DNA of 64,000 nt from a virus (Duplodnaviria; Caudoviricetes): positions 3,776-67,775 of IMG/VR virus record IMGVR_UViG_3300017912_002502. One strand, given 5' to 3'. Every line of letters starts with the position of its first letter. The first letter of the stretch is position 1. The notes under the pieces are model-generated. The model searched no databases. It saw only the letters and a list, made by a program, of their open reading frames with translations, and was not told the origin of the DNA. Below are positions 1,185 to 59,553 of the stretch, piece after piece. A program made the translations under genes and the position numbers.

Positions 1185-2342
1185 ATGAGTAAAGTAAATC
1201 GTGAGATCTTGATAAACGCTCTGAATGAGCAGAATCAAGAAACCTTTACGCGACCAGAAGTCGCTAAAATTGTCGAGGATCTCGGCATTTCCTATCCGCA
1301 CTGGTTCTTTAGAGAGAACAAAATCGGTTACAATAAATACGCTGTTGATGTAGCAGGACTGAAAGTCGTGGCGAGTAATCCCACTCCCCAGTCTGCACCT
1401 GCTCCAGTCGAGGACGCTAAGATTGTGACCCAAGCAAAACTTGCGGTTCAAGTTGATAACCTAATTCCTGTGGTTGACCCAACGTATGTCGCGTTTGGTT
1501 TCCACAGAGACCTGACCAAGATTATCAAGTCTGGTCTATTTTATCCCACGTTTATTTCTGGTCTGTCTGGTAACGGTAAGACCACTATGGTTGAGCAGAT
1601 CTGTGCTAAGACCAAACGTGAGGCAATCCGTGTCAATATCTCTGTTGAGACTGACGAGGATGATTTAATTGGTGGTAATACTCTGGTCGATGGTAACGTA
1701 GTTTACCGTGAAGGACCAGTGCTTACTGCTATGAAGCGTGGTGCGGTTCTAATTCTTGATGAGTTGGATCGTGGCTCTAATAAGCTGATGTGTCTTCAAG
1801 CTATCCTTGAAGGTAAACCATACTTCAACAAGAAGACTGGCGAGATGGTTGCTCCGTCTGCTGGGTTTAACGTCATTGCGACAGCTAACACTAAAGGTCG
1901 TGGGTCTGATGATGGTAAGTTTATCTCTGCCCAGATCCTTGATGAGGCATTCCTAGAAAGGTTTGCTATTACTGTTGAGCAACAGTTCCCTTCTGAAGCG
2001 CAAGAGAAAAAGATTGTGCTCGGTAAGATGAGTAAAGTTGGTAAAGTCGATGAAGACTTCGCTGAGAAACTTGTCCGTTGGGCTGATGTGATCAGAAAAA
2101 CCTTCTCTGAAGGTGCTATTGATGACCTCGTTTCTACTCGTAGGATTGAACACATCGTGAATGCATACGCTATGTTCGATGATAGGGTAAAAGCTATCGA
2201 GTTATGTGTTAATCGTTTTGACGAAGATACTCGTGCTGCCTTTATTGACCTTTACACTAAGGTTGATGCTGGTGCTCTCGAGGATGATGAAACTGTTGTT
2301 GATCAGCCAAGCGAAGATGACTTGGCTGACGATGACTTTTAA
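1185..2342 (+). CDS. cobS: CobS-like MoxR-family AAA+ ATPase
   Basis: Walker A GLSGNGKT, Walker B LILDE, TANTKG and LDEAFLERF motifs typical of T4-like phage CobS homologs. Confidence 0.9.
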   Translation: MSKVNREILINALNEQNQETFTRPEVAKIVEDLGISYPHWFFRENKIGYNKYAVDVAGLKVVASNPTPQSAPAPVEDAKIVTQAKLAVQVDNLIPVVDPTYVAFGFHRDLTKIIKSGLFYPTFISGLSGNGKTTMVEQICAKTKREAIRVNISVETDEDDLIGGNTLVDGNVVYREGPVLTAMKRGAVLILDELDRGSNKLMCLQAILEGKPYFNKKTGEMVAPSAGFNVIATANTKGRGSDDGKFISAQILDEAFLERFAITVEQQFPSEAQEKKIVLGKMSKVGKVDEDFAEKLVRWADVIRKTFSEGAIDDLVSTRRIEHIVNAYAMFDDRVKAIELCVNRFDEDTRAAFIDLYTKVDAGALEDDETVVDQPSEDDLADDDF

Positions 2343-2413
2343 GAGAAAGTGATTAATGAATGGCTTATCTACCAAACAAAGCTGCGGTCTATAAGTATAA
2401 TTTGGAGAAACGA

Positions 2414-2728
2414 ATGTCAAAAAGTATGGAAATAACACCACAAGAATATGGACTTGTTGACTACAAATATAATGAGGGCGATAACATCGCCCAACTTCAA
2501 GCGTATGTCGACGCCACTTATGGTGAACATTATTCCGTCAATAAGTTTCAAGCCACCGAGTTTATAATCGATGGTGGTCATGGCGAAGGATTTTGTATTG
2601 GAAACATTATGAAATATGCCCAACGCTATGGCAAGAAAGATGGATATAATCGCAAGGATCTAATGAAGGTCTTGCATTATGCCTTGATTGCACTTCATGT
2701 TCATGATATGGAACACGAAGATGGCTAA
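2414..2728 (+). CDS. Conserved T4-like hypothetical protein (DUF3310-like)
   Basis: HY...GFCIGNIMKYAQRYGKKDG...DLMK motif; GGAG SD before ATG 2414. Confidence 0.65.
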   Translation: MSKSMEITPQEYGLVDYKYNEGDNIAQLQAYVDATYGEHYSVNKFQATEFIIDGGHGEGFCIGNIMKYAQRYGKKDGYNRKDLMKVLHYALIALHVHDMEHEDG

Positions 2729-3494
2729 AGTTTTGGTCGCTATCCTGACCAATGGGAAACCTGAGAAGTTAGTTCGCTGTTTGCAGTCCGTGAACTCAAA
2801 CTCCTCTCCTCACGAGCGGATTGTCGTTATTAATACTCAAGATAGCGACTATCTTTCTCAGGCGACCCAACTTTCTTTTGACCATGGATTCCCAGTAAAG
2901 GTTACAGAGTCCAATGGCACTCCAGGATTGGGCAAAAATTCTGTACTTAAAACATTCCTAGAGACTGATGCAGATTATCTTCTCCAGATCGATGGGGATG
3001 ATTACATTTCAGATAATTGTGTTGCTCGATTACACGAGGAGATCAAGAACAATGAGTTTGATATTGCATGCCTTACAAATGGTTATGCTCTTACCTCTGG
3101 TGGTAATCAAATTCCTATATCACAGATTGAAAGTCTGCCAAAGATTTTACGACTCGGATCTAAGTGGGACAAAGAAGAACTTGATTTCTATTATAGATAT
3201 AAAGAGTTTATTCGTTCGCAGACACTGAATGGTGAACCATTTAATCGATATCTCCTGATCAGTCGCAAAGCTGCAAAAGTTAAATTCAATGAGAGCCTTG
3301 ACATTGCCGAGGATCTCTTACACTTCCTTCAGATTAAAAATATTATGAAGGTACACGAAGTCTCCTCTGATAAAGATGACTTCCTGTATATGTATGACTT
3401 TTCCGAAGATGGACAGGTTATGAATTCAATTAAAGATAAAAGTATGTTGAAAAATATACGAGCAATGATGCAAGAATATAATACAACAATATGA
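2721..3494 (+). CDS. GT-A fold (family 2-like) glycosyltransferase
   Basis: N-terminal VLVAILT, then GKNSVL and a DxD motif IDGDD; C-terminal ED. Confidence 0.75.
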   Translation: MAKVLVAILTNGKPEKLVRCLQSVNSNSSPHERIVVINTQDSDYLSQATQLSFDHGFPVKVTESNGTPGLGKNSVLKTFLETDADYLLQIDGDDYISDNCVARLHEEIKNNEFDIACLTNGYALTSGGNQIPISQIESLPKILRLGSKWDKEELDFYYRYKEFIRSQTLNGEPFNRYLLISRKAAKVKFNESLDIAEDLLHFLQIKNIMKVHEVSSDKDDFLYMYDFSEDGQVMNSIKDKSMLKNIRAMMQEYNTTI

Positions 3495-4291
3495 AAGTTT
3501 TAATTTTTGGACTTCCAGGATCTGGAAAAACATACTTAGCTGAACTTCTATCAGTTTATTTTGGTAACAAAGCTAAATGGTTTAATGCTGATAAAGTCAG
3601 AGATGAAGCAAACGATTGGGACTTTTCCGATGAAGGTCGGTTAAGACAATCCAAACGTATGTTAGATTTATGTGAAGAAGCAGAGTCTCATTATGATATC
3701 GTCATTGCAGATTTTATTGCACCATTCGAAGTAGCAAGAGAGCAATTCAGTGCTGACTATGAAATCTTTATGGATACAATAGAAGAAAGCAAATACAAAG
3801 ACACGAATAAAATATTTGAAAAACCAGCAAATGCTGATTACATTGTTACTGATCAACGTGGTGATATTGATGCAAAAATTATTGCATACGATATAGGTCA
3901 AAAATTTTTATGGGATAATCAAGCACCAACAACACAAATGTTAGGAAGATTTCAACCATGGCATCATGGTCATCAAATTCTTTTTGAACGAGCATTAGAC
4001 AAACACGGTCAAGTAAATGTTATGATTAGAGATATGCCACATGATAATATGAAAAACCCATATGTGGCTCCGCTTGTAAAAGAAAATTTGATACAACATT
4101 TACATAATTATGCTGGGCAAGTTAAGATAGATATCGTGCCAAACATAATGAATATTACATATGGTCGAGATGTTGGATATAAGATAGAGCAAGAACATCT
4201 TGGTGAAGAAATAGAGTCTATCTCAGCAACAGAAATAAGAAGGGCTGAGCATATTAGACAACAACAAGATCCGAGGCACAATCAAGAATGA
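3491..4291 (+). CDS. cysC: Adenylylsulfate (APS) kinase fused to a HIGH-family nucleotidyltransferase
   Basis: N-terminal GLPGSGKT, NADKVR, DFSDEGR, ADFIAPF (CysC-like); C-terminal GRFQPWHHGH ... ISATEIR. Confidence 0.75.
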   Translation: MKVLIFGLPGSGKTYLAELLSVYFGNKAKWFNADKVRDEANDWDFSDEGRLRQSKRMLDLCEEAESHYDIVIADFIAPFEVAREQFSADYEIFMDTIEESKYKDTNKIFEKPANADYIVTDQRGDIDAKIIAYDIGQKFLWDNQAPTTQMLGRFQPWHHGHQILFERALDKHGQVNVMIRDMPHDNMKNPYVAPLVKENLIQHLHNYAGQVKIDIVPNIMNITYGRDVGYKIEQEHLGEEIESISATEIRRAEHIRQQQDPRHNQE

Positions 4292-5478
4292 ATAGAGTCG
4301 CAATCACTGGTATAGGAATTGTTGATAATCTGGGAACAAATCCAAATGAATGTTTCCAGAATATGGTCACAGATGATTATGTTCATCCAGTCGATTATGA
4401 AACCGATATTGAATCCCTGAAGGGATTAAAATGTTTTAAGACACGTGAACCTGAATGGGTAGTTCCAGAAGGTATGCGTGTGCCAATGCATAATGCTTTG
4501 ACAGTAGCATCTAAGAATGCTTTACACGTTATACAACAAGCAACTGAACATATGGGAAGAGTCGCGAAGGGTGTTGAGTACAATCGATCTACAAATGTGG
4601 CAGTTGTTTTCAGTTCCCTCGCAGCAAAACCGCAGACTGAAGCTGGACCATTTGTTGACAAGATGAGAGGTGGCAAACGTCTTTCTCCTCGAACTGCTGT
4701 CCAATATCTAAATGACTTCACTGCTGGATTGATCAGTCAGACTTTTGACTTTCGTGGTGCATGTGTCAGTATGGATGCTGCATGTGCAACTGGTTTATAC
4801 TCTATTGATTACGCTATGCATCTGCTCAAGACTCATGACTATGTTGTTGTGGGCGGTACAGATACTCCAGCTGTTGACGATGATATGTATTTGTTCAATC
4901 AGTTAGGTGCACTGGGTACGAAGTCTAGCCCATTCGATAAAAATAGAGATGGGTTTATTATGGGTGAGGGTGCAGGATGTTTGATGTTAGAAAAGGAACA
5001 CAACGCTATTGCTCGTGGAGCAGATATACTTGGATATATTCATTCAGTATCACATCACACAGACGGTCAATTAGGATCTCCTACGTCTCCTGATTTGAGT
5101 ATGACTGGAGCCATAGCATCAATGAGAGAAGCTACCTCTGGTCTTGATAAAGATAGAATTGGTTTCGTAAATGCACACGGCACATCAACACCTATTGGTG
5201 ACGATCTAGAATATGGAGCCATACAACAAGTCATTCCTGAAACTCCTGTGCTGAGTTTCAAATCTAAGATTGGTCATTCACTCGCATCAAGCGGTATCAA
5301 TGAAACAATCTATTCATTGATGTGTCTACAAAATTCAGTAATACCGAAAAACTTTAATATAGATGATTGTGATTTAGAATTTGTCTATAAATACAGTCAG
5401 AAACTCAATAAAAATATGGCGGTAAAGAATTCATTTGCCTTTGGTGGTAAATCTTCTACACTGGTTTTGGAAGTATGA
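4288..5478 (+). CDS. fabF: Beta-ketoacyl-ACP synthase (FabF/KAS-like ketosynthase)
   Basis: Cys-His-His triad motifs DAACATG, NAHGTST and KSKIGH; also PFDKNRDGFIMGEGAG and C-terminal KNSFAFGG. Confidence 0.9.
   Translation: MNRVAITGIGIVDNLGTNPNECFQNMVTDDYVHPVDYETDIESLKGLKCFKTREPEWVVPEGMRVPMHNALTVASKNALHVIQQATEHMGRVAKGVEYNRSTNVAVVFSSLAAKPQTEAGPFVDKMRGGKRLSPRTAVQYLNDFTAGLISQTFDFRGACVSMDAACATGLYSIDYAMHLLKTHDYVVVGGTDTPAVDDDMYLFNQLGALGTKSSPFDKNRDGFIMGEGAGCLMLEKEHNAIARGADILGYIHSVSHHTDGQLGSPTSPDLSMTGAIASMREATSGLDKDRIGFVNAHGTSTPIGDDLEYGAIQQVIPETPVLSFKSKIGHSLASSGINETIYSLMCLQNSVIPKNFNIDDCDLEFVYKYSQKLNKNMAVKNSFAFGGKSSTLVLEV
5386..5393 (+). promoter_or_regulatory. Possible T4 late promoter inside the 3' end of the KS gene
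   Basis: Exact TATAAATA about 80 nt upstream of the desaturase start. Confidence 0.35.
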
Positions 5479-6194
5479 TAACAGAATATATTGGTAAAAA
5501 TACAGGATATTTGCACACGGTAGTTTATATCGCGTGTACTCTATTGACATTAGTTTATCTTCCTACATTATCACTTGTAGAGTTTTTACTTTGGTTGGTG
5601 GGTACAAATCTCCTAGTAGGATATTTGATATCAGGATTCCAACATAGATATTGTTCACATAAGTCGTGGCAACCAAGTCGATTTGTCGAGGCATTTAGCG
5701 TATTCCTCACAACATTCTTTTTACTCACTCCTTGTATGGGTTGGGCATCAGTCCACAGACTTCATCACAGATACACAGACACGGAGAAAGATCCACATGG
5801 AAACGTACATAGTATTTTCGATAATTTTATGGTATTCAATATTAGCCCTCCAGTAACATCAATCCCAAGATGGATGATCAGAGATAGACTATATGGTTTC
5901 CAAGCAAGATGGTATTGGGAGATCGGTTTGCTCTCTGGAGCATTGATGTTTTTACTTGGCTATGGTATGTTATGGGCATCAGTAATAGCAGTGGCATATG
6001 TATTTCAAGTCACACTAAATATTGTTGGACATCCTGATAGGAGTCCAGTGAACAATGCATTATTATCTATGTTATACAGTGGTGAATTATATCATAAAAA
6101 CCATCACCAGAAACCATCGAACCCAAAGTTCGGATTGATAGATGCACCGTACCAATTTTTTATAAGGTTTCTAAATGTTCGTAAGGATAGATAG
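5475..6194 (+). CDS. Membrane fatty-acid desaturase (delta-9-like)
   Basis: Three His boxes HRYCSH, HRLHH and HKNHH; hydrophobic segments; DPH motif. Confidence 0.88.
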   Translation: MITEYIGKNTGYLHTVVYIACTLLTLVYLPTLSLVEFLLWLVGTNLLVGYLISGFQHRYCSHKSWQPSRFVEAFSVFLTTFFLLTPCMGWASVHRLHHRYTDTEKDPHGNVHSIFDNFMVFNISPPVTSIPRWMIRDRLYGFQARWYWEIGLLSGALMFLLGYGMLWASVIAVAYVFQVTLNIVGHPDRSPVNNALLSMLYSGELYHKNHHQKPSNPKFGLIDAPYQFFIRFLNVRKDR

Positions 6195-6762
6195 TAACCA
6201 TATTGTTGATAATAAATTATTTGAGATGTGCAATAGTGCTCATCTAAGCAATGACCCAACGGCTGAGAATATAGAATCTTTAGACTGGTGGGATCGACCT
6301 GAAACATTATTACACCAGATCTTCAAACAGAAGGTCTATGATGAAGGTGGATATTTTGTTTACGAGGAAGATGAAAAATATCTGGGTGGATTAGGATGCT
6401 ATCCATTTGAAGAGGATAAAAATATATTTGTTTGCCCTGTTAGATTATATGTCACTCCAGATCTAGGTTTGAAAAAAAGTATGAGAGTAATTCAACAACT
6501 GGTAGCACATGCAGTAAATTATGCAAAAGATAAACATCGTGCTATGATATTTTTCGTCAACGAACATAACAAATGGAGATTAAAAAGCGTAGAACATGCG
6601 GTCAATCCTAAGAAAAACCCATATGCTGTATTTCCAAATCTAGCTATGAAGCAGTATGATAAGACAGTAAAATATAAATTCACTGATCAGACTGCAGTAT
6701 ATTTAGATTACAGCGAATATGAAAGCGAGATTTTAAAATGTCTGAAAAAAATTACTATTTAG
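6175..6762 (+). CDS. Hypothetical protein, possibly a GNAT-fold acyltransferase
   Basis: YFVYEEDEKYLGGLGC and VRLYV resemble GNAT beta-strands; overlaps the desaturase stop. Confidence 0.4.
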   Translation: MFVRIDSNHIVDNKLFEMCNSAHLSNDPTAENIESLDWWDRPETLLHQIFKQKVYDEGGYFVYEEDEKYLGGLGCYPFEEDKNIFVCPVRLYVTPDLGLKKSMRVIQQLVAHAVNYAKDKHRAMIFFVNEHNKWRLKSVEHAVNPKKNPYAVFPNLAMKQYDKTVKYKFTDQTAVYLDYSEYESEILKCLKKITI

Positions 6763-7061
6763 AATACACAATAACAAGAGATTCTTTAACAGAACCATTT
6801 GGTGCTCAAACTTCCGATCCATCAATCGCTAAAGGATGGGTAAAAAAAGCTGAAGAAATCTATCGTCAGACTGGTGCAGAGAAAACTTATCAAGCATCGC
6901 CTGATGGTTTGTCTTTAGTAATAACAGTAAAATTTAAAACTCCTGAGAGTCGAGATTCTATTATTAAAATGTATGAGGAAGAAACAGCAAAGCATAAAGA
7001 TTTTGTAGATGACCACAATCATCTTAATATTGAATACAAATTATTTGAAACTGATGCTTGA
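6738..7061 (+). CDS. Hypothetical protein
   Basis: 107-aa ORF overlapping the upstream gene; last gene before the next promoter. Confidence 0.6.
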   Translation: MSEKNYYLEYTITRDSLTEPFGAQTSDPSIAKGWVKKAEEIYRQTGAEKTYQASPDGLSLVITVKFKTPESRDSIIKMYEEETAKHKDFVDDHNHLNIEYKLFETDA

Positions 7062-7089
7062 CATTTTGATAATGTTGATGTATTATAAT
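7058..7089 (+). promoter_or_regulatory. sigma70-like promoter for the clamp operon
   Basis: TTGACA(7058)-17-TATTAT(7081), overlapping TATAAT(7084). Confidence 0.7.
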
Positions 7090-7121
7090 GACAATATTTG
7101 AAAGAAAGAGGAAACTATATT

Positions 7122-7778
7122 ATGAATATTTCTAAACCAACCCTTGAAGTCTTAAAAAACTTCGCAACTATTAACACGAACATCCTTGTTCGTGAAGGTA
7201 ATACTCTTGCCACTATTTCTAATGGTAAGAACATATTCTCTCGAGCCACAGTGACCGAATCCTTTGATAAGGAATTCGCGATTTATGACCTCAACTCATT
7301 GTTGGGTTTGCTCACATTTACTGAGAATCCTGATCTGGATCTTGGCGACGAGAGTCTTAAAATCAACAGCGGTGGTGCAGAGTTCGAGTATTTCTATGCC
7401 GATCCTAGCATCATCGTTGCTGCTCCCGACAAGACTATTGAAGTCGATAACTTTTATGAGTTTGAGATGAGCAAAGATGAAGTTACGAATATTACTCGTG
7501 CTGCATCTGTGATCAGTGCACCTGTACTGAGTGTTGTCGGTAAAGATGGTAAGGTTACATTATCTGTTGGCGATCCGTCAACTCCTAGAAGTAATACTTT
7601 CCGTCAGGTGATTGGTGAGACTGACAAAGAATTTGATTGCAGACTCGCTGTCGAGAACTTCAAAGTGATTGCAGATACTTACAAAGTGGTATTGTCACAG
7701 AAGAAGTTTATGTTCCTCGAGAACAAATCAGGTTCAATGAAATACTGGTTGGCTCTCGAACCTAACTCAGTAATCTAG
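7122..7778 (+). CDS. gp45: Sliding clamp gp45
   Basis: TLEVLKNFATINTNI, FAIYDLNSLLG and YWLALE motifs; position next to gp44. Confidence 0.93.
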   Translation: MNISKPTLEVLKNFATINTNILVREGNTLATISNGKNIFSRATVTESFDKEFAIYDLNSLLGLLTFTENPDLDLGDESLKINSGGAEFEYFYADPSIIVAAPDKTIEVDNFYEFEMSKDEVTNITRAASVISAPVLSVVGKDGKVTLSVGDPSTPRSNTFRQVIGETDKEFDCRLAVENFKVIADTYKVVLSQKKFMFLENKSGSMKYWLALEPNSVI

Positions 7779-8389: not shown

Positions 8390-9328
8390 ATGATAAAAGA
8401 TGAATTTCTCTGGGTTGAAAAATACCGACCACAAAAACTAAGCGAGTGTGTCCTTCCCTCCTCTCTCTTGGATACATTCCAACAGTTCGTGGACGCAGGA
8501 GAAATTTCAAATCTATTATTATGTGGTACTGCTGGCACGGGAAAAACGACGGTTGCTCGTGCGTTGTGTAACGAATTAGGATGTGACTATATTATTATAA
8601 ATGGCTCTGAGGAGTCTGGTATTGATGTCTTGAGAACTAAAATCAAAGACTTTGCCAGCACTGTTTCCTTTGAAGGAAAGCCGAAAGTAGTCATTCTTGA
8701 CGAAGCAGATTATCTGAATCCCAATTCGACACAACCTGCTCTCCGTGCATTCATTGAAGAGTTTTCTTCAAACTGTCGGTTCATATTCACCTGTAATTTC
8801 CGCAACAGGATTATTGAACCACTGCATAGTCGAACTACGGTCATTGATTTCAAACTTGGTAAGTCTGACCGACAAAAGATGGCATCACGTTTTATGAAAC
8901 GTATGACCACTATTCTAGATGGTGAAGGTGTAGGATATTCTGAAAAAGTCCTTGCTGAACTTCTGATGAAGCACTTCCCAGACTATAGACGTGTACTTAA
9001 TGAATTGCAACGGTATAGTGTTTCTGGTAATATTGACGAGGGGATTTTATCTAATCTCTCCGAAGTCAATACCAAAGCACTTATTGATAGTCTGCGAGAT
9101 AAAGACTGGAAGAAAATGCGACAGTGGGTCGCCAACAATGTTGATGCAGATCCTCAAGGCGTGTACCGTAAAATCTATGATACACTAATTGATAAAGTTG
9201 CACAAGTTCCCCAGTTGGTTTTACTTATCGCAGACTATCAATACAAGGCAGCTTTTGTTGCTGATCAGGAAATTAATCTTACAGCATGTCTAACGGAGAT
9301 TATGGCAAATGTTGAATTTAGAGGTTGA
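8390..9328 (+). CDS. gp44: Clamp loader large subunit gp44
   Basis: LWVEKYRP, GTAGTGKT, ILDEADYL and SRTTVIDF. Confidence 0.96.
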   Translation: MIKDEFLWVEKYRPQKLSECVLPSSLLDTFQQFVDAGEISNLLLCGTAGTGKTTVARALCNELGCDYIIINGSEESGIDVLRTKIKDFASTVSFEGKPKVVILDEADYLNPNSTQPALRAFIEEFSSNCRFIFTCNFRNRIIEPLHSRTTVIDFKLGKSDRQKMASRFMKRMTTILDGEGVGYSEKVLAELLMKHFPDYRRVLNELQRYSVSGNIDEGILSNLSEVNTKALIDSLRDKDWKKMRQWVANNVDADPQGVYRKIYDTLIDKVAQVPQLVLLIADYQYKAAFVADQEINLTACLTEIMANVEFRG

Positions 9329-10088
9329 TATAAAAAATGCGACAGAGTCAACCGCTGAACTCGTCGCTGAAGCAGTATTAGAAAACTTAATTGTTGTAAT
9401 AAGAAATCAAGACCTCACTCCAGAGGATGAAGTTCGATTCTGTAAAATGATAGGTGAAGTTGAAGACTATCATGCACTCGAACACGTTAAAGAATTTACA
9501 AAACCAATAGCAGTAAATCAAAATGTTCTCCGCGTAACAGGAGAAAAAGATGAAGAAGGCAGAGAAGGTTTATTTGGTCATGTATCAGAATTAGACTGGC
9601 ATGCAAACCAAGTATCTCGCCACGACAGATATCCTCTTATATGGTTATATGCTGTCAAAGGTAGCGAAGGCTCTCAAACCAGTTGGTTAAATATGGCTAA
9701 AGTTTGGGAAGCATTAAGTGAAGAACAAAAAGAGATCGCAAAGACAAAACAGATCTGGTGTGGTTATGAAAAAGGTCGCGTAAGTGAAAGTGAATATTTC
9801 ATAGACCACGTTGGTGAAAAACCACACAACATCTATCATAAGAATGTTGCAGGTGTTGAAGGTTTGTTCTTCCCATTTTTACAAATATTCAATGAGGAAT
9901 GGGATCCATTTTTTGATGAGTTAAAAGAGATTGCACTCGATCCTTATTTTCAGTATCATCACTTCTGGAAAGATGGTGATATCGTGATCAGTGAACAATG
10001 GCTCTCATTACATAAACGCTGGGAGTTTGAGCATATGGATAAAAGATTACTGCATAGGATTGCATTTGATTATAGGAATGTAGTATGA
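9309..10088 (+). CDS. TauD/TfdA-family 2OG-Fe(II) dioxygenase
   Basis: LDWHAN, T-x-W-x-N, WKDGDIVISEQ...LHKR and RLLHR motifs. Confidence 0.8.
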   Translation: MLNLEVDIKNATESTAELVAEAVLENLIVVIRNQDLTPEDEVRFCKMIGEVEDYHALEHVKEFTKPIAVNQNVLRVTGEKDEEGREGLFGHVSELDWHANQVSRHDRYPLIWLYAVKGSEGSQTSWLNMAKVWEALSEEQKEIAKTKQIWCGYEKGRVSESEYFIDHVGEKPHNIYHKNVAGVEGLFFPFLQIFNEEWDPFFDELKEIALDPYFQYHHFWKDGDIVISEQWLSLHKRWEFEHMDKRLLHRIAFDYRNVV

Positions 10089-10401: not shown

Positions 10402-10529
10402 TCTTATTATTGGTAGCGGTCATCTATGCTGCAGTATGGGCAGACAGTGAACGCACAAAGAAACACGAGTATGGCGATCGATCTAAGCATCGCCTTCACT
10501 CGCAAGACCATGAGGATCTACAACTGTGA
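10389..10529 (+). CDS. 46-aa single-TM protein (not in ORF track)
   Basis: Translates MEWLVLLLVAVIYAAVWADSERTKKHEY...; fills the gap and overlaps the next start. Confidence 0.45.
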   Translation: MEWLVLLLVAVIYAAVWADSERTKKHEYGDRSKHRLHSQDHEDLQL

Positions 10530-11329
10530 TGAAAGTTAATCTGATCAATGATTGGGTTGTTGAAATCAGTGATGTGTGGTTGCCAGATCTATCTCCTGCA
10601 GAATGTAGGATGATAGGTAAATTAGTTTTGACAAACCTTGTAGTGGTTGTCAAGAATCAAATGATGTCTCCTGAGGCACAAATAGATTTTTGTAATCATT
10701 TAGGTAAGGTCGAAAGATACTATTCATCACAGAGAAAGATTGAAATATCAAAAGACTTATCAGTCGGTGATGGCGTGGCTCGTATCACTGGTGCAAAAAA
10801 TGAACGCGGTGCAAGAGGTATGTTCCCAGATAAGCACGAACTTATTTGGCATGCAGATGGTTGCGAGAAACCAAATCGAAACTCTATTGTTTGGTTACAT
10901 GCAATTGAAGGTAGTATAGGAAGTAAGACAAGTTGGAACAACACCGCACTCGCTTACAGAGATATGCCAGAGGATATCAAAGCCAAAGTTCGTGAGATGA
11001 AAATTTACACAAAGACTCCTGAAAATTTCCCATTGTATATCAAAAGATCGAGAAAACCATTTGATGTATTCATGAAAAATGATGCAGGTGTCGAGGGATT
11101 ATATTATCCTCATAACTTTGTTGATGAAATTATCGGTGAAGATATCCACGATTATTTGGTTGACTTTTTGTTTCAACCCAAGTATATTTACGACCATGAA
11201 TGGACAGATGGTGATATTGTGATTAGTGAACAATGGCTCACAACACATATGAGACACTACTGTGAAACAATCGAAACTCGAGTGCTCAATCGTATTGGGC
11301 TCAAACACGACAAGGTGCTAAATGCTTGA
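10526..11329 (+). CDS. Second TauD/TfdA-family 2OG-Fe(II) dioxygenase
   Basis: LIWHADG (HxD), TSWNN, WTDGDIVISEQWLTTHMR; paralog of 9309..10088. Confidence 0.82.
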   Translation: MMKVNLINDWVVEISDVWLPDLSPAECRMIGKLVLTNLVVVVKNQMMSPEAQIDFCNHLGKVERYYSSQRKIEISKDLSVGDGVARITGAKNERGARGMFPDKHELIWHADGCEKPNRNSIVWLHAIEGSIGSKTSWNNTALAYRDMPEDIKAKVREMKIYTKTPENFPLYIKRSRKPFDVFMKNDAGVEGLYYPHNFVDEIIGEDIHDYLVDFLFQPKYIYDHEWTDGDIVISEQWLTTHMRHYCETIETRVLNRIGLKHDKVLNA

Positions 11330-39870: not shown

Positions 39871-41676
39871 ATGACGTTGGCAAAAAGAGAATATATGGGG
39901 ATTCAGATCGATGAATCTCGTGACGAACTGTTTGATAAATTAGGATTACAGCGTCTAAAAGAAAGTTATATGCGCGAAGATGAAACAACACCTCAAGAGA
40001 GGTTTGCTTTCGTATCAAAATCATTTTCATCCAATCCAGAACACGCACAGAGGTTATATGAATACAGTAGCAAACACTGGCTTTCTTACTCTACACCTAT
40101 CCTTTCTTATGGTCGGTCTAAACGTGGTATGCCTATATCTTGCTTTCTCAACTACATTGAGGATACAGCTGAAGGTCTTGTTCAAAACTTTAGTGAAACA
40201 GCGTGGCTCTCTATGTTGGGTGGCGGTGTTGGTATTGGGTTCGGCATCCGTGCTGCCGATGACAAATCGACTGGTGTCATGCCACATCTTAAAACCTATG
40301 ATGCTAGTTCCCTTGCTTATCGACAGGGAAAAACTAGACGCGGAAGTTACGCAGCTTACTTAGATATTTCTCATCCAGACATCATGATGTTCCTCGAAAT
40401 GAGGAAACCAACTGGTGATCAAAACATGCGTGCATTGAACTTGCACCACGGAATTAATATTAGCGACAGGTTCATGGAAGTTATTGAACGCTGTATGCAA
40501 GATCCGACAGCAGACGATGGCTGGAATCTACTAGACCCACATTCAGGTGCAATTCGCGAAACAGTATCGGCGAAAGCACTTTGGCAAAAAATTCTCGAGT
40601 TGCGTATGGAAACTGGTGAGCCATACATTCATTCTATTGATACAAGCAACCGATTGATGCCTGAATTCCAAAAAGAATTAGGATTGAAAATTCACCAGAG
40701 TAACTTATGTTCGGAGATTATTCTCCCCACAAATGAAGAACGAACTGCCGTTTGTTGTTTGTCTTCAGTGAACTTAGAAAATTATGATGCTTGGTCAAAA
40801 GACCAGTTGTTCCTGAAAGACATGGCAGAAATGCTAGACAATGTCCTTCAATACTTCATTGACAATGCTCCAGATTCTGTATCACGTGCAAAATATAGTG
40901 CCATGAGAGAACGCTCTATTGGTATCGGTGCACTTGGCTTTCATGCTTATCTACAGAAAAAAGGTATTGCTTGGGAGAGCGCAGTTGCCAAAGGTGCAAA
41001 CATGCGTATGTTCCGACTTATTCGGAGTAAATTAGATGAAGCAAATATTCAATTGGGAAAAGAAAGAGGAGAGTCCCCAGACGCTAAAGGAACAGGCAAG
41101 AGATTTAGCCATGTTATGGCTATTGCTCCCAATGCATCTTCTAGTATTATTATGGGAAACACTTCGCCTTCTATTGAACCTTTTAGAGCAAATGCCTATC
41201 GACAGGACACTATATCGGGATCTTTTCTTAACAAAAACAAGTATCTGGATGCTCTCATCAAAGGAAAAATTGAAAAAAATAAAAAATTGGATTATGACGA
41301 AATTTGGTCGTCAATAATCGCTAATGATGGTTCGGTTCAACACTTAGATTGTTTGGAAGAATCTGAAAAGTATATATACAAGACATCAATGGAAATTGAT
41401 CAGAGATGGCTCATTGAACACGCTGCAGATAGGCAGGTATTCATTGACCAAGCACAATCTCTCAACCTATTTTTCCGTCCAGATGTCAACATAAAATACC
41501 TTCATGCTATCCATTACTTGGCTTGGAAGCAGGGATTAAAGACACTTTATTATTGTCGTTCAGAAAAACTCGGCAAAGCTGATAAAGTGTCAAAGCGTAT
41601 TGAACGCCAAGTAATTAATGAATTGGATATGAATGCGTTGGTAAATGATGAAGAATGTATCGCATGTGAAGGCTGA
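39871..41676 (+). CDS. nrdA: Ribonucleotide reductase class I alpha subunit (no ATP cone)
   Basis: PISCF, SNLCSEI, AIAPNASSS and C-terminal CIAC. Confidence 0.96.
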   Translation: MTLAKREYMGIQIDESRDELFDKLGLQRLKESYMREDETTPQERFAFVSKSFSSNPEHAQRLYEYSSKHWLSYSTPILSYGRSKRGMPISCFLNYIEDTAEGLVQNFSETAWLSMLGGGVGIGFGIRAADDKSTGVMPHLKTYDASSLAYRQGKTRRGSYAAYLDISHPDIMMFLEMRKPTGDQNMRALNLHHGINISDRFMEVIERCMQDPTADDGWNLLDPHSGAIRETVSAKALWQKILELRMETGEPYIHSIDTSNRLMPEFQKELGLKIHQSNLCSEIILPTNEERTAVCCLSSVNLENYDAWSKDQLFLKDMAEMLDNVLQYFIDNAPDSVSRAKYSAMRERSIGIGALGFHAYLQKKGIAWESAVAKGANMRMFRLIRSKLDEANIQLGKERGESPDAKGTGKRFSHVMAIAPNASSSIIMGNTSPSIEPFRANAYRQDTISGSFLNKNKYLDALIKGKIEKNKKLDYDEIWSSIIANDGSVQHLDCLEESEKYIYKTSMEIDQRWLIEHAADRQVFIDQAQSLNLFFRPDVNIKYLHAIHYLAWKQGLKTLYYCRSEKLGKADKVSKRIERQVINELDMNALVNDEECIACEG

Positions 41677-42241
41677 TATACCTGAAGGCAAACGGATAGC
41701 AGTTTGTGTATCAGGTGGCTGGGATAGTGCTGTATTATGGCACATCATATATAATGAATGCAAAGAACGCGGTCAAAGTTGTAGACCGTACACCGTCCCC
41801 AAGATCGATGGGGCAGTTAATTATGCAAATCAAGTCCTGAAGTGGTCAGGATATGACACTGAAACAAATATAGTAGGATCTATTCAATCTGAAGACCCTT
41901 CTGAATATGTTACCAGTGGTGTCAAAGAGATTTTGATAAACGGATATGCTGATGTAGTATATTCTGCTGTCACCTCTTATTATGATGATATGGAACCTGA
42001 TCACGATCGTCAGTTTACGAAAGGAACTCCATTCGAACAAATTGTTCGGCAACCTTTTGCTGAGTGGACAAAAGACAAAGTTGTCCAGCTTGGCTTCGAT
42101 CTAGGTATCGCCGACGATATTATGAACATCACTCATTCGTGCACAGAACGTGACGAAGGGAGATGTGGGTACTGTCCATGGTGTAAAGAACGTGCATGGG
42201 CATTTAACAAAATTAACAAAATAGATAAAGGAACTAACTAA
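41645..42241 (+). CDS. QueC-like PP-loop ATPase
   Basis: SGGWDS PP-loop and C-terminal HSC-x8-CGYCPWC Zn site. Confidence 0.7.
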   Translation: MMKNVSHVKADIPEGKRIAVCVSGGWDSAVLWHIIYNECKERGQSCRPYTVPKIDGAVNYANQVLKWSGYDTETNIVGSIQSEDPSEYVTSGVKEILINGYADVVYSAVTSYYDDMEPDHDRQFTKGTPFEQIVRQPFAEWTKDKVVQLGFDLGIADDIMNITHSCTERDEGRCGYCPWCKERAWAFNKINKIDKGTN

Positions 42242-42459
42242 TGGCAATCAAAGCAAAAATATTTTCAAGGGATGACTGCTCCTTCTGCAGTCAAGCAAAA
42301 GAATTTCTAAACGGAATGGAGATTGAATTCGAAGAAGTACATCAGCCGACTGGTAGAGTTCCACAAATCTATGCAGGTGATACTCACATTGGTGGGTACA
42401 CAGAGTTAATTGAGTTATCTCAATCTTTGTCCAAATGGGATGAAACTTTTAACATATAA
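42241..42459 (+). CDS. nrdC: Glutaredoxin
   Basis: CSFC, VPQI and IGGY. Confidence 0.9.
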   Translation: MAIKAKIFSRDDCSFCSQAKEFLNGMEIEFEEVHQPTGRVPQIYAGDTHIGGYTELIELSQSLSKWDETFNI

Positions 42460-42473
42460 GAATAGGAAAAACA

Positions 42474-43460
42474 ATGGCTAACAAATTAAACTTACAAGAC
42501 GAACGCGACTATTTTAAACCTTTCTCATATCCATGGGCATATGAAGCATGGCTAAAACACGAACAATCACATTGGCTTCACACTGAAGTACCAATGGCAG
42601 AAGATGTAAAAGATTGGAAAAATACACTTTCAGATGCAGAACAAACATTCTTGACTAACATATTTAGATTTTTTGTTCAAGGAGATGTAGATGTAGCAGG
42701 TGGTTATGTAAATAACTATCTTCCATATTTCCCACAACCAGAAGTCCGTATGATGTTATCTGGTTTTGCTGCAAGGGAAGCATTACACATTGCAGCATAT
42801 GCACATCTTATTGAAACACTCGGTATGCCTGAGTCTACATATAATGAGTTTTTAGAATATGAAGCTATGAAAGACAAACACGAATACTTCATGGATCTCT
42901 CTGGTAAAAATGGTACGAAAGAAAGTGTAGCAACTAACATTGCAGCATTCAGTGCATTTACTGAAGGCATGCAGTTGTTCTCATCTTTTATTATGTTATT
43001 GAACTTCCCAAGACACGGTAAAATGAAGGGTATGGGTCAGATTGTTACATGGTCAATCGTAGATGAAACTATGCATGCTGAATCTATGATTAAGTTGTTC
43101 CGTACATATATTGAAGAAAACAGAGAACTTTGGAACGACTCGCTGAAAAGTAAAATCTATACAATCGCTGAAAAGATGGTAGAACTTGAGGATAAATTTA
43201 TCGACCTCGCTTTTGCTATGGGTGATATGGAAAACTTAACAGCAGATGAAGTTAAGAAATATATTCGTTATATTGCAGACCGTCGTCTGATCAGTCTTGG
43301 TATGAAAGGTATCTTTAAAGTTAAGAAGAATCCTCTGCCATGGGTTGAAGAAATGATTAATGCACCAACACACACAAACTTCTTTGAGAACCGAGCCACC
43401 GATTATGCTCGTGGCGCAATCACAGGTGACTGGGGAGATGTCTGGGGATCGGCTGCTTAA
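42474..43460 (+). CDS. nrdB: Ribonucleotide reductase class I beta subunit
   Basis: REALHIAAY, EGMQLFSSF and DETMH diiron ligands. Confidence 0.96.
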   Translation: MANKLNLQDERDYFKPFSYPWAYEAWLKHEQSHWLHTEVPMAEDVKDWKNTLSDAEQTFLTNIFRFFVQGDVDVAGGYVNNYLPYFPQPEVRMMLSGFAAREALHIAAYAHLIETLGMPESTYNEFLEYEAMKDKHEYFMDLSGKNGTKESVATNIAAFSAFTEGMQLFSSFIMLLNFPRHGKMKGMGQIVTWSIVDETMHAESMIKLFRTYIEENRELWNDSLKSKIYTIAEKMVELEDKFIDLAFAMGDMENLTADEVKKYIRYIADRRLISLGMKGIFKVKKNPLPWVEEMINAPTHTNFFENRATDYARGAITGDWGDVWGSAA

Positions 43461-44842: not shown

Positions 44843-45181
44843 ATGGCGAAACGGAAACCTAAAGAGAAAAAGGTTCACCGAGTTTACTGTACTTACTTTC
44901 CAAATGGCGATTATTATATTGGCTATTCTGGAAAACCGCAGAGACTATATGAAAACTATTATGGCTCATCAAAGTATGTGCTACAATATGAAGGTGAATT
45001 GAAAAAAGAAACTATTGCTGAGTTCGAGATGAAGTCTTGGGCAAAAATGCAAGAGTTTCTATTACAATGGCAGCAGAGACACGATCCAAAATGTCTTAAC
45101 TCCATGCTTAATATTCGGCTCAATAAAGAGCCACTGGCAGATTTTGAGCCAGTAAAATGGGAGCCAAATGGTAACAATTGA
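44843..45181 (+). CDS. Short GIY-YIG-like (Seg-type) catalytic domain protein
   Basis: VYCTY...YYIGYSG, YYGSS, then conserved E and CLN positions. Confidence 0.55.
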   Translation: MAKRKPKEKKVHRVYCTYFPNGDYYIGYSGKPQRLYENYYGSSKYVLQYEGELKKETIAEFEMKSWAKMQEFLLQWQQRHDPKCLNSMLNIRLNKEPLADFEPVKWEPNGNN

Positions 45182-45752
45182 GACAGATATATTTGTAATG
45201 GCATTATCGTTACGATCAGGATCTAAAGTTGTAAGCAAATACATTATGGGCGATGCTCATATAAATGCTGAAAGACTTAATTCATATAGAGATATAAATT
45301 ATTATCTTGAAATGTCAAACAAAGAAGTTTGGTTTTTGATCAGAAACCCTTTAGATAGGTTTATCTCTGGAATATATAGAGATTTGTTAATAGAACGTAA
45401 GACCATAGAGGAAATACATGAATATCGTAAGAACAATTGGTATCATGGTCAACCTATTCTACAATATATAAAAGATAAAGAATATAAAATTTTACCATAT
45501 GATGACATAAAAAAATATGTGGATGTAGAAAATGATGAAAAATTTGCTGAAAACTTTAAGACTACACATTATGATTTAGCAAGAGAATACGCTAACACAA
45601 TAGATTTAAAAGCTGAGTTTGATGCATATGATTACATTATGAATAACAAACAAGTTTTGTCTCCTAAACATTTTAAAAATATGGTAGCAAAAGCCAAATT
45701 AGTTAATTATAAGGGAGATAATATAAACAAGGGACAGTTATGGGATATGTAG
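45168..45752 (+). CDS. Sulfotransferase-like protein
   Basis: LRSGSKVV (5'-PSB-like) and LIRNPLDRFISG (3'-PB-like). Confidence 0.6.
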   Translation: MVTIETDIFVMALSLRSGSKVVSKYIMGDAHINAERLNSYRDINYYLEMSNKEVWFLIRNPLDRFISGIYRDLLIERKTIEEIHEYRKNNWYHGQPILQYIKDKEYKILPYDDIKKYVDVENDEKFAENFKTTHYDLAREYANTIDLKAEFDAYDYIMNNKQVLSPKHFKNMVAKAKLVNYKGDNINKGQLWDM

Positions 45753-56976: not shown

Positions 56977-58281
56977 ATGGTAAAAGAACTTACAATTGAA
57001 AAAGTCGACTGTGAAGACAAACTAGGTAAATGGCTCGATGAGTCAACCTATGATCAAGTCATCACTGAAGACACTGACTTATATGCTCTCGATAAATTCG
57101 AGGCAAATGGTGAACACAATGTCATCTTCAAGTTTCGTAAAGGTGTATTCTCATCTCAGGAACAGCAAGATGCATATGATGGATTGGCTCCAGCTGCAAT
57201 TGAAACTCAGAATCGTGGGTTGGCTGCTGGACCACGTGCAGGGCAAAATGGCAAACGTGACTGGGTTACACCTCTACAAGAGGATATTCTAGACGCTATC
57301 TTTACCGCACCAGACTCGTCACTTGATGACGAGTTTGACGCGATTGAAAATGCTATTGCTAGACATAAACCAGATGAAGCTGGTCGTGGTCGTGTATGGT
57401 TACGCGACAACATCAAGAAAACAGGAGTTGAATACTCTGAATTCTTCGACTGGTGGCTCGACTCTGTTCGTCCACTATCTCCTGCAGAACGTAAAGTCGA
57501 AGCAAAGAGTATGGTCAAAAACTATATTTCAGATACATCATACGCGAATACAGTGAACTCTGGTATCGCTGGATGGTTCGATAGATATCCTCGGATTCCA
57601 TATGGTCGTGCTACAGCATACACTGAAAAGAATCCTGAACTATTCGCGAAGTCGTATCCATATCTGCAGACTCTGGCTCGTAAGTTTGAAGAGTTACTGC
57701 CTGAAAGATATGCAAGACAAAAAGCATTCACTGATCAGATCGATCCAGCGTTTGTTGTTCCTGAAACTCCTTACACAACACTAACAGTCAACAGGACATT
57801 CAGAACTGCTGCACATAGAGATGCTGGTGATTACACTGAAGGTTTCTCTAATATCAGTTGCATCTCTCCAGATGGTAAAAAAGGTTGGGATGGTTGTCTG
57901 TTTGTTCTACCTGAATATCGTATCGCAGTTGAGTTGCATCCAGGAGATCTCCTGCTTGTAAACAATCACGATGGTATTCACGGCAATACTGAAATCATTG
58001 GTGACGATCCTATCCGTATTTCGATCGTCGCATATGCTCGTGAGAAAATGGCTCTGCTTGGGTCATATGATTACGAGAATCTCAGACGTCAGTTCGTTGA
58101 TGACAGACGTTTGAATGAAGAACATCCCGAGTGGCGACCACTCTGGAATGGCGTATCTACTAAAATGTGGGATTCACAAGAGTGGTACGACTATCTCAGA
58201 GAGCGAGGTGGAGAAGAAATGCTGAACAAGTATCATCCGTCAGCATCCACAGGATCCGCATCACTCGAGGATTTGTTCTAA
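56977..58281 (+). CDS. Tet/JBP-family 2OG-Fe(II) DNA base dioxygenase
   Basis: TLTVN...TAAHRD (HxD), GDLLL...HGNT (distal H) and RISIVAYAREKM (2OG-binding RxS). Confidence 0.85.
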   Translation: MVKELTIEKVDCEDKLGKWLDESTYDQVITEDTDLYALDKFEANGEHNVIFKFRKGVFSSQEQQDAYDGLAPAAIETQNRGLAAGPRAGQNGKRDWVTPLQEDILDAIFTAPDSSLDDEFDAIENAIARHKPDEAGRGRVWLRDNIKKTGVEYSEFFDWWLDSVRPLSPAERKVEAKSMVKNYISDTSYANTVNSGIAGWFDRYPRIPYGRATAYTEKNPELFAKSYPYLQTLARKFEELLPERYARQKAFTDQIDPAFVVPETPYTTLTVNRTFRTAAHRDAGDYTEGFSNISCISPDGKKGWDGCLFVLPEYRIAVELHPGDLLLVNNHDGIHGNTEIIGDDPIRISIVAYAREKMALLGSYDYENLRRQFVDDRRLNEEHPEWRPLWNGVSTKMWDSQEWYDYLRERGGEEMLNKYHPSASTGSASLEDLF

Positions 58282-58928
58282 TGTGCGCAGTTATTGGCGC
58301 ATCTCTAGTCTCTCCCAGCAATCAAGACCTAGATCTGGTGAGAGATGTTTTTCTCGAATCTCGTATTCGAGGTTTGCATGCGACTGGTGTGTCGTATGTT
58401 AAACAAGGTAAGGTTGCCACTCTCATTAAACCTGTCCCTGCTCCTGACTTCTTCTCTCTCGTTGAAATGGAGCAATTTGTTAATGAGGATGGCAACCTTT
58501 ACCTGATAGGTCACTGTCGTTATTCAACCAGTGACCTTCGATTTAACCAACCCATACAAACTAATCCAGACTTGGCGATCGTACACAATGGTGTAGTGAC
58601 ACAGGAGTTACCACATAACTGGGAATATTTGTATGGTTATCAAACTGAGACAGCCAATGATAGTGAACTGATCAATAGAACACTAGAAGCTGGACTGAAT
58701 CCTCAAGATATCTGGGCAGACTCGTCATTATCTGTAATCGAGTTACGCTCTGATAAATCTATGAAAGCATATCGCAACGGAAAGCGACCACTATACAGAA
58801 CGCAGATGCACAACGGTACTATTTTCACATCAACGAAAGATATTGCCATCCGTGCTGGTCTGCCTGATAATCAAGAACTTATGGAAAATGGAGGAATAAA
58901 TGCTGACTTACAGCCCAGCTACTCGTGA
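58281..58928 (+). CDS. Stand-alone class II (Ntn) glutamine amidotransferase domain
   Basis: True start is the TAATG-coupled MCAVIG (Cys2 nucleophile); RGLHATG, GHCRYST, HNGV and NDSE. Confidence 0.85.
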   Translation: MCAVIGASLVSPSNQDLDLVRDVFLESRIRGLHATGVSYVKQGKVATLIKPVPAPDFFSLVEMEQFVNEDGNLYLIGHCRYSTSDLRFNQPIQTNPDLAIVHNGVVTQELPHNWEYLYGYQTETANDSELINRTLEAGLNPQDIWADSSLSVIELRSDKSMKAYRNGKRPLYRTQMHNGTIFTSTKDIAIRAGLPDNQELMENGGINADLQPSYS

Positions 58929-59553
58929 TGAGGTAGAACATTTATTACTCGTCTCGGAAGAAGGTAAGAACACTCGCTTCCTAAAATCATCACACAATCT
59001 GTGGTATCGTTTTAAAAACTATACAAAAGCACCACCACTCGCTGCACGTGAGGGTAATGATATTGTCGCTCTGATATTTGCCACATTCAATAAAGATGGT
59101 TACACGAATCTATATGAGATCGTTACAATGGAAGGTCATGAGGGTAAAGGATATGGCTCGAAGGTATGGGAATATTTCTTAGACTACGCAGTGAACCAGA
59201 AACAGAGTAAACGATTAAAGATATCTTGTACGCCATCATCAGTTACTTGGCATATGCGTAATGGTCTGGTGTTCTGGGCAGTCGATCCATCTGGTAGTTT
59301 ACGATCTGATCAGCCACTGTTTGCTACTCGAGGTGAGCAGTTGGAGTTTCGTGCGAAGGCGATTGTAACTCCGAGTATCGCCAAACCTACTAATCCTCGA
59401 GTGATAGAACAATTAAAGAAAGAAGCACCAGAGTCTCATGGCTTTGGTAAAAAGAAAATGAGTGCCACAGAGGAAGCAATTGCTGCTGTCGGCGAGTGTT
59501 GGTTACGCGATGCATTATATGAGGATGCATCTCTGGAGAGTCTGTTTGACTGA
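58900..59553 (+). CDS. GNAT acetyltransferase
   Basis: LYEIVT...EGKGYGS acetyl-CoA-binding motif A. Confidence 0.78.
   Translation: MLTYSPATRDEVEHLLLVSEEGKNTRFLKSSHNLWYRFKNYTKAPPLAAREGNDIVALIFATFNKDGYTNLYEIVTMEGHEGKGYGSKVWEYFLDYAVNQKQSKRLKISCTPSSVTWHMRNGLVFWAVDPSGSLRSDQPLFATRGEQLEFRAKAIVTPSIAKPTNPRVIEQLKKEAPESHGFGKKKMSATEEAIAAVGECWLRDALYEDASLESLFD

Follow-up and report, generated by a model that had tools for sequence, protein, structure and literature searches.

Lipid-related auxiliary genes of phages are known mainly as cyanophage desaturases. These cyanophage enzymes (vFADs) were proven to be delta-9 desaturases, active on C16 in yeast, and a role in membrane fluidity during infection was proposed for them (Roitman et al. 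2017; PMC5776448). Freshwater pelagimyophages of group PMP-D have been listed with both fabF and a stearoyl-CoA desaturase (Zaragoza-Solas et al. 2020; PMC7029224), in a single annotation sentence without analysis of linkage, clade or function, and virome surveys have recorded fabF among auxiliary genes (PMC10653327). Here we analyzed a 64,000-nucleotide stretch of viral DNA (the window; positions 3776-67775 of the 67,775-bp IMG/VR record IMGVR_UViG_3300017912_002502, which holds approximately 42% of the genome) and a block within it of six overlapping open reading frames (ORFs), two of which encode a beta-ketoacyl synthase (KS) and a fatty-acid desaturase. The source is an uncultured marine T4-like myophage, with a T4-like gene content that includes the gp45 clamp, the clamp loader, RegA, the gp43 polymerase, UvsX, ThyX and NrdA/B. 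Its DNA polymerase is less than 49% identical to that of any cultured phage (best matches to cyanomyophages).

We found that the KS and the delta-9 desaturase are the recurrent core of the block and that the block consists of three separable parts, i.e. the KS-desaturase pair, a unit of three genes (a GT2 glycosyltransferase, a GNAT-like protein and a 107-amino-acid (aa) protein), and a fusion of a kinase with a nucleotidyltransferase (kinase-NTase). We lean modestly toward reading the island as a set of independent modules, in which the KS and desaturase would retune the membrane fatty acids of the infected cell with the acyl carrier protein (ACP) of the host. Compared by description only, the PMP-D pelagimyophages are likewise T4-like aquatic myophages with KS and delta-9-type desaturase auxiliary genes, and the present phage differs from them in its marine lineage, its GT2/GNAT/107-aa module and its kinase-NTase insertion. 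The window desaturase and the cyanophage vFADs are both phage-encoded enzymes of the DesC/SCD type with three His boxes; however, the former is a minimal protein of 239 aa linked to a KS, while the vFADs are not KS-linked. The analysis shows a deep, virus-only clade of elongating KS on hundreds of uncultured marine phage contigs, often coupled to minimal delta-9 desaturases and without a carrier protein of its own having been found.

The six ORFs are all on the plus strand with successive overlaps of 4, 4, 4, 20 and 25 nt, and their domain calls agree across Pfam, NCBIfam and PHROGs:

2721-3494 (alternative TTG start at 2688), plus strand: GT2 glycosyltransferase, soluble, with a DGDD motif (PF00535, 40.4 bits)
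3491-4291, plus strand: fusion of a P-loop (APS-kinase-like) kinase and a HIGH/ISxTxxR nucleotidyltransferase (phrog_10255; APS_kinase and CTP_transf_like)
4288-5478, plus strand: FabF/FabB-like elongating KS of a virus-specific clade (PF00109 and PF02801)
5475-6194, plus strand: minimal 239-aa membrane delta-9 (SCD/DesC-type) fatty-acid desaturase (PF00487, 32.7 bits)
6175-6762, plus strand: GNAT-fold protein of an unannotated phage family (AlphaFold2/Foldseek fold; Acetyltransf_1, 21.6 bits)
6738-7061, plus strand: 107-aa fast-evolving ferredoxin-like (beta-alpha-beta-beta-alpha-beta) protein (AlphaFold2 model)

An earlier sequence-only reading had placed six overlapping ORFs at these same coordinates and joined them in one biosynthetic operon. 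The ORFs themselves were confirmed by ORF calls, domain searches and the ratio of nonsynonymous to synonymous substitution (dN/dS), which against the relative L001 was 0.065 for the KS, 0.11 for the desaturase, 0.13 for the GT2 and 0.17 for the GNAT-like gene (0.035 for gp45), values that speak against chance ORFs. In its interpretation, the conserved intact genes, the KS-desaturase pairing and the need for host ACP were retained, while the single six-gene pathway and sulfate activation were not.

The ketosynthase and its linked desaturase

The KS was matched by ketoacyl-synt (PF00109, 97.2 bits) and Ketoacyl-synt_C (PF02801, 75.5 bits), the two domains of a thiolase fold. It shares this two-domain fold with bacterial FabF and FabB (KAS II and KAS I; TIGR03150, PDB 4ls5, 1kas, 1dd8), along with the Cys-His-His-Lys set, the HGTSTP and GHS motifs and the gating Phe in xFGFGG. 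The residues concerned (Cys166, His297, His330, Lys325 and gating Phe385) were all present and were invariant in 30 of 30 diverse family members, and the Cys/His/His triad (C166, H297, H330) first read as intact from the sequence is thus intact across the family. In other respects the phage KS departs from the bacterial enzymes. Its score against the FabF equivalog TIGR03150 was 218.6 bits, with a cut-off of 493.75, and every other KS equivalog also scored below its cut-off. Identity to solved FabF/FabB structures was approximately 30%, and full-length identity to cellular KS was 28-32% (80 best matches when 185,579 species genomes were scanned). Owing to loop deletions (an 8-residue loop after the ALST motif is missing), the phage enzymes are 20-40 residues shorter than FabF, and changes also affect the GSGIGG pocket loop and the one ahead of HxTAP. 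An acpP motif was observed just upstream of 61 of 79 cellular KS matches and upstream of none of the phage KS genes. A search of cultured phages with the KS gave only matches of approximately 30% identity, on records resembling bacterial fab genes.

As a single query the KS retrieved 8 close viral loci, and a 30-sequence family alignment located the family on 278 IMG/VR contigs, 80 of which were retrieved. In a quick IQ-TREE maximum likelihood tree, in which the cellular side was made up of the best-scoring FabF-type matches only and not of the whole KS superfamily, the 30 phage KS formed one clade (SH-aLRT 100), joined by a long branch (0.88 + 1.11 substitutions per site) to 45 cellular FabF from many phyla. 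The divergence within the phage clade was as deep as that among bacterial phyla. Judged by its sequences, the phage KS is an old viral family and not a recent copy of a host gene.

The desaturase exceeded the FA_desaturase (PF00487) cut-off of 29.7 bits and carries the boxes HRYCSH, HRLHH and HKNHH, a further histidine at position 186 and the SCD-type motif TDTxxDPH. All nine histidines (H57, H62, H94, H97, H98, H186, H207, H210 and H211), as well as D102, D106 and H108, were invariant in 25 of 25 members, in keeping with the three intact His boxes noted at the outset. The protein aligned to solved human and mouse SCD1 over His boxes 1 and 2, including TDTxxDPH (4zyo, E 2.5e-06). No tblastn match to cyanophage genomes was observed at E 1e-5, and the sole match in a cultured phage was to Pelagibacter phage Mosig, at 25% identity. 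Five cellular relatives were found, in Bdellovibrionota or other metagenome-assembled genomes (26-36% identity), from a narrow single-pattern scan that is not evidence of absence elsewhere, the wider desaturase alignment being too divergent for a cellular pattern scan.

To compare gene order, iterated profiles made for each of the window genes were run against the ORFs called in 92 loci, with synteny covering approximately 120 related viral loci overall. Among 58 distinct KS loci, four arrangements (A-D) were observed. Arrangement A, to which the window belongs apart from its kinase-NTase, has the order cobS-like AAA5, DUF3310, GT2, KS, desaturase, GNAT-like, ~107 aa, gp45 and Prx; it was observed in 10 distinct relatives with KS identities of 39-95%, and the same order is found on metagenome contigs L019, L020 and L093-95. 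The co-occurrence on which the sequence-only reading depended is therefore present for GT2, KS, desaturase, GNAT-like and 107-aa genes, in the same order and down to 39% KS identity. Arrangement B is pelagimyophage-like and has ThyX, a 223-aa ORF, DUF3310, KS and desaturase, then small ORFs, CsgF/CsgG, FecR and a CHASE2 cyclase. In arrangement C the desaturase lies 2-7 kb from the KS, and in arrangement D the KS stands alone among unrelated genes (Band_7, AAA ATPase, GDSL-like protein). In 25 of the 58 loci, the gene directly preceding the KS or GT2 is a DUF3310 gene. As side observations, CsgF, CsgG, a FecR-domain protein and a CHASE2-guanylate/adenylate cyclase were observed in a row in the KS-desaturase relatives L004 (13772-18550) and L009 (11981-16819), and in another lineage (L015, 8001-11247) a 114-aa ORF comes after the KS, then a 269-aa protein bearing an HxD...H cupin-like motif and an Asp/Arg-hydroxylase-like protein, with a MaoC-like hot-dog protein on the opposite strand.

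The desaturase directly adjoins the KS in 20 of the 52 distinct loci with room for it. Among the 21 loci having at least 5 kb on both sides of the KS, it was adjacent in 9, nearby in 5 and not found in 7, i.e. it was within 7 kb of the KS in 14 of 21. The two genes overlap by 4 nt in the window, and the pair occurs in two phage lineages whose flanking genes differ. It is very likely that the KS and the desaturase work jointly on fatty-acyl chains, in line with the earlier suggestion that the phage may elongate and desaturate acyl chains of its host.

The loci in which the KS is frequently alone, with no other lipid gene, would fit a KS that serves as a takeover tool, binding or draining host acyl-ACP or malonyl-ACP and so arresting host lipid synthesis. 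We regard this as very improbable. The full catalytic set (the decarboxylation His pair, the Lys and the gating Phe included) does not vary across a very deep clade, which argues for productive catalysis, and the pairing with a desaturase points to the making of lipid rather than its blocking. Also doubtful, if less so, is a KS that serves, instead of bulk lipid, the supply of a cofactor or of a specialised acyl chain (e.g. octanoyl- or pimeloyl-ACP in the making of lipoate or biotin, or an acyl chain of lipid A or an aminolipid), with the GT2, GNAT-like and kinase-NTase proteins serving other processes, e.g. DNA or glycan modification. The distance of the clade from housekeeping FabF and its altered pocket and surface loops would suit such a role, as would the lineage with a KS beside MaoC-like hot-dog and cupin/Asp-Arg-hydroxylase-like genes, and the window itself encodes other plausible clients for sugar- and acetyl-transferring enzymes (Tet/JBP, amidotransferase and amino-acid:DNA-transferase genes, a UDP-sugar dehydrogenase and radical SAM genes). 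However, the commonest partner of the KS is a delta-9 desaturase, an enzyme acting on long chains, and no lipoate, biotin or lipid A genes were observed near the KS in any locus examined.

Composition of the gene block

Contigs of other T4-like phages, retrieved by an IMG/VR scan with remote members of the GNAT-like family, allowed the companions of the KS-desaturase pair to be followed where no KS was observed. On L211-215 and L220 the order is AAA5, DUF3310, 107-like, 205 aa, GT2, GNAT, gp45 and Prx, and the KS is absent from those contigs. The GT2, GNAT-like and 107-aa genes were thus shown to be a recurrent phage unit, which occupies the same slot between DUF3310 and gp45 also in the absence of a KS. 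A 150-kb, 92%-complete genome without a KS has the order GT2, Coq4-like, GNAT and B12 radical SAM. Other contexts lacking a KS place the desaturase next to the GNAT-like gene, namely nrdA, desaturase, GNAT and nrdB in L207-209, and TauD, GNAT and desaturase in L203. In L218/L219 a GT2 is followed by GNAT, methyltransferase, desaturase, three ORFs and a KS; a Pfam search of the neighbours in L219 added nothing. Because there are contigs with the three-gene unit and no KS, and a pelagimyophage-like lineage with KS and desaturase and no GT2, GNAT-like or 107-aa gene, the unit and the pair each exist without the other. A side observation is that the GNAT-like gene, with or without a desaturase, lies between nrdA and nrdB in other phages (L201, 2570-6635; L207, 2459-6574); the nrdA-nrdB gap of the window (39871-43460) holds a 198-aa ORF with a partial QueC match.

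The GT2 protein scored well above the Glycos_transf_2 cut-off of 23.3 bits and keeps the DGDD (DxD) motif of its GT-A domain, so a glycosyltransferase does lie beside the KS and desaturase as first described. It is shortened to 153 aa in L021/L022, where the other genes are intact. The GNAT-like protein is a marginal Acetyltransf_1 match (cut-off 20.7 bits), and its AlphaFold2 model (pLDDT 93) has a GNAT fold by Foldseek (E 2e-06; VIA Z 10-13 over approximately 140 residues). The nearest structures are small acetyl-CoA-dependent N-acetyltransferases, with an acyl-homoserine lactone (AHL) synthase only at rank 46. The pyrophosphate loop Q/RxxGxG/A is not conserved, the sequence after strand 4 being PDLGLKK here and HRDNVFAK in other members, while an N-terminal segment, W-x-x-RPET...Q...YD-x-GGY, is. 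The putative acyltransferase of the sequence-only reading is therefore upheld in its fold and not in a canonical pyrophosphate-binding loop. A profile search of 1.84 billion representatives gave 135 related clusters, nearly all of them approximately 200 aa long and lacking Pfam annotation.

The 107-aa protein always accompanies GT2 and GNAT-like genes in KS loci. Its AlphaFold2 model (pLDDT 90) gave only generic ferredoxin-like folds in Foldseek, pointing to no function, and no Pfam match, Cys cluster or ligands, or ACP motif was found in the sequence. The protein is 55% identical to its counterpart in L001, compared to approximately 100% for the adjoining gp45, and its dN/dS of 0.68 against L001 and 0.47 against L002 suggests diversifying or relaxed selection. 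Synonymous divergence from L001 was 0.34-0.65 for the island genes and 0.11-0.16 for the flanking AAA5, DUF3310, gp45 and Prx genes, a 2-5 times difference, and the island thus seems to have had a recombination history different from that of the surrounding core genes.

The kinase-NTase is the third part. Its Pfam matches were APS_kinase (34.5 bits) and CTP_transf_like (20.4 bits), and it belongs to phrog_10255 'kinase' (E 2e-53), a family frequent in viral protein clusters. The sequence-only reading had taken it for a sulfate-activation fusion. Against the apsK equivalog TIGR00455, however, the kinase half scored 26 bits with a cut-off of 138.7, leaving its Pfam match, which reaches the APS_kinase cut-off, as support at the domain level only. 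The second half contains GRFQPWHHGH and ISATEIR and looks NMNAT-like, its best matches being NadM/archaeal NMNAT and cytidylyltransferase models (far below cut-off in NCBIfam), and no ATP-sulfurylase match to this C-terminal domain was found. An NMNAT/NadR-like role or another role with a nucleotide cofactor would both be candidates. Sulfate activation is therefore unsupported, given the weak apsK score and the NMNAT/cytidylyltransferase type of the second domain, and on the same grounds a PAPS synthase at 3491-4291 was considered and rejected.

The kinase-NTase was absent between GT2 and KS in every relative, including L001 (KS 95% identical) and the Tara scaffolds L093-95 (GNAT-like 97% identical). 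Only a 144-150-aa homolog of the kinase domain was observed in L021/22 and L038/39, 8.6-8.8 kb upstream. Full-length homologs with the same kinase and HIGH-nucleotidyltransferase architecture (40-44% identity) are encoded by Xylella phages Sano and Salvo and Stenotrophomonas phage DLP_6, which have neither a KS nor a desaturase. The gene was thus shown to be a mobile phage gene inserted between GT2 and KS in this phage only and not tied to the lipid genes. Synteny consequently splits the block in three, and the single six-gene pathway first proposed is not sustained.

Leaving the kinase-NTase aside, the remaining five genes might still make one dedicated product, such as an unsaturated acyl chain transferred by the GNAT-fold protein and either glycosylated by the GT2 or joined to a glycan, serving as a surface, receptor-masking or signalling molecule. 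The five are contiguous and overlapping and keep their order in 10 distinct relatives to 39% KS identity, never being partial among KS loci, and purifying selection acts on all of them except the 107-aa gene. In the unrelated L218/L219 lineage the other four families occur again, in a different order (GT2-GNAT-methyltransferase-Des-...-KS), and the desaturase adjoins the GNAT-like gene without a KS in L207-209 and L203. The GNAT superfamily also includes acyl-ACP-dependent N-acyltransferases. Weighing against such a pathway, each sub-module was found without the other, the GT2 is cut to 153 aa in L021/L022 beside intact genes, and the best structural matches of the GNAT-like protein are the small acetyl-CoA-dependent enzymes, well ahead of the AHL synthase. 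Adjacency is itself weak evidence, as marine T4-like phages gather unrelated auxiliary genes in such islands. We consider a five-gene pathway unlikely, and somewhat more unlikely still the specific form in which a phage-owned GT2-KS-desaturase-GNAT-107aa pathway would use host ACP to place an unsaturated acyl chain onto a sugar, amine or protein, by which infected cells or virions would gain a virus-specified lipid or lipoglycan.

Carrier protein supply and the proposed role of the pair

The sequence-only reading had noted that no ACP is encoded in the window, and this was extended here to the whole 67,775-bp record, on which neither PF00550 (ACP) nor PF01648 (phosphopantetheinyl transferase, PPTase) had a match. 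Nor did PF00550 match any of five larger relatives, one of them a 138.7-kb genome (86% complete) carrying the whole block, and it had no match over cut-off on 46 further KS-bearing viral records (51 related records in all); most of these records are fragments for which absence is not proven per genome, and PF01648 was searched on the phage's own record alone. The small KS-adjacent ORFs (77 aa in L012, 68 aa in L009, the 107-aa protein of the window, and those of 114/116 aa) were considered as hidden ACPs and rejected, none being ACP-like in sequence. Fer2, FabA/Z (PF07977) and PlsC (PF01553) were not found, the latter two on the phage's own record and four larger relatives. Because a phage ACP was not found, host AcpP would be needed, as had been argued from the sequence. 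Compared with a type II cluster of the fatty-acid synthase or polyketide synthase style, the block has no dedicated ACP or PPTase and no dehydratase or acyltransferase match, and the lack of a match for ACP, PPTase, acyltransferase, ketoreductase and dehydratase alike tells further against a dedicated five-gene pathway. No acyl-glycoside, N-acyl compound or virion decoration, all suggested earlier as products, can be inferred from these data.

In the reading we favor, with independent modules in the island and retuning of membrane fatty acids by the pair, the core module would be the KS translationally coupled to the minimal delta-9 membrane desaturase. In it, the KS would condense acyl-ACP and malonyl-ACP, both of host origin, sustaining or biasing chain elongation after host gene expression has been shut down, and the desaturase, drawing on O2 and reductant from the host, would introduce a cis delta-9 double bond into saturated acyl chains. 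Their joint effect would be to maintain or alter how long and how unsaturated the membrane lipids of the infected cell are, all remaining components of fatty-acid synthesis being supplied by the host. If the enzymes are active in this way, abundant marine phages would have direct control over acyl chain length and unsaturation in the membranes of the hosts they infect, with implications for membrane physiology, burst timing and the lipid pool of the sea. The "mini biosynthetic operon" is itself a mosaic of separable modules, which guides the choice of genes to co-express.

Several observations weigh against this reading. A delta-9 acyl-lipid desaturase and an acyl-ACP condensing enzyme pass no substrate directly to each other, and the description of the pair as one module therefore rests on gene linkage. 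The KS substrate or carrier could differ from that of FabF, since the clade lacks a loop, has altered pocket loops and scores far below the FabF equivalog cut-off. The GT2, GNAT-like, desaturase and KS genes recur near each other in several differing arrangements, which could reflect one common product and not independent modules. The record is just 42% complete, and a distant ACP is possible for this phage.

Expression signals and other features of the window

The island lies in a block of replication genes, between the cobS-like ATPase/DUF3310 genes and the gp45 clamp, and no intergenic gap longer than approximately 20 nt was observed from 1185 to 7061. The features that border or lie within the six ORFs are:

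2360-2728, plus strand: DUF3310 gene, conserved left neighbour of the island (PF11753, 43.3 bits)
5386-5393, plus strand: TATAAATA, matching the T4 late-promoter consensus by sequence, in the 3' end of the KS gene
7058-7086, plus strand: sigma-70-like promoter match (TTGACA-17-TATTAT, 11/12 by consensus) at the end of the island, ahead of gp45
7098-7778: gp45 clamp (Pfam)

The TATAAATA site at 5386 lies within the KS gene, where it precedes the desaturase start by 89 nt and codes for Tyr-Lys-Tyr within an otherwise variable KS loop. Every relative whose KS is at least 67% identical, L023 excepted, has the motif at -89/-92 relative to the desaturase start. The site is thus kept across two phage lineages and may be an embedded late promoter. 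At 7058-7086 we infer, from the 11 of 12 consensus positions matched, a promoter ahead of gp45.

Elsewhere in the window, an ORF at 45168-45752 scored 19.8 bits against Sulfotransfer_2, under the cut-off of 22. A pair of paralogous ORFs with 34% identity (9309-10088 and 10526-11329) flanks the clamp-loader genes, with homologs in L093 that belong to the TauD family of dioxygenases. A UDP-sugar dehydrogenase and radical SAM genes are likewise encoded. Genes for a Tet/JBP-type 2-oxoglutarate oxygenase (56977-58281), a GATase_6 amidotransferase (58167-58928) and an amino-acid:DNA transferase, ADDT (59462-60565), are clustered at 56977-60565, and this cluster looks like a DNA base hypermodification set.

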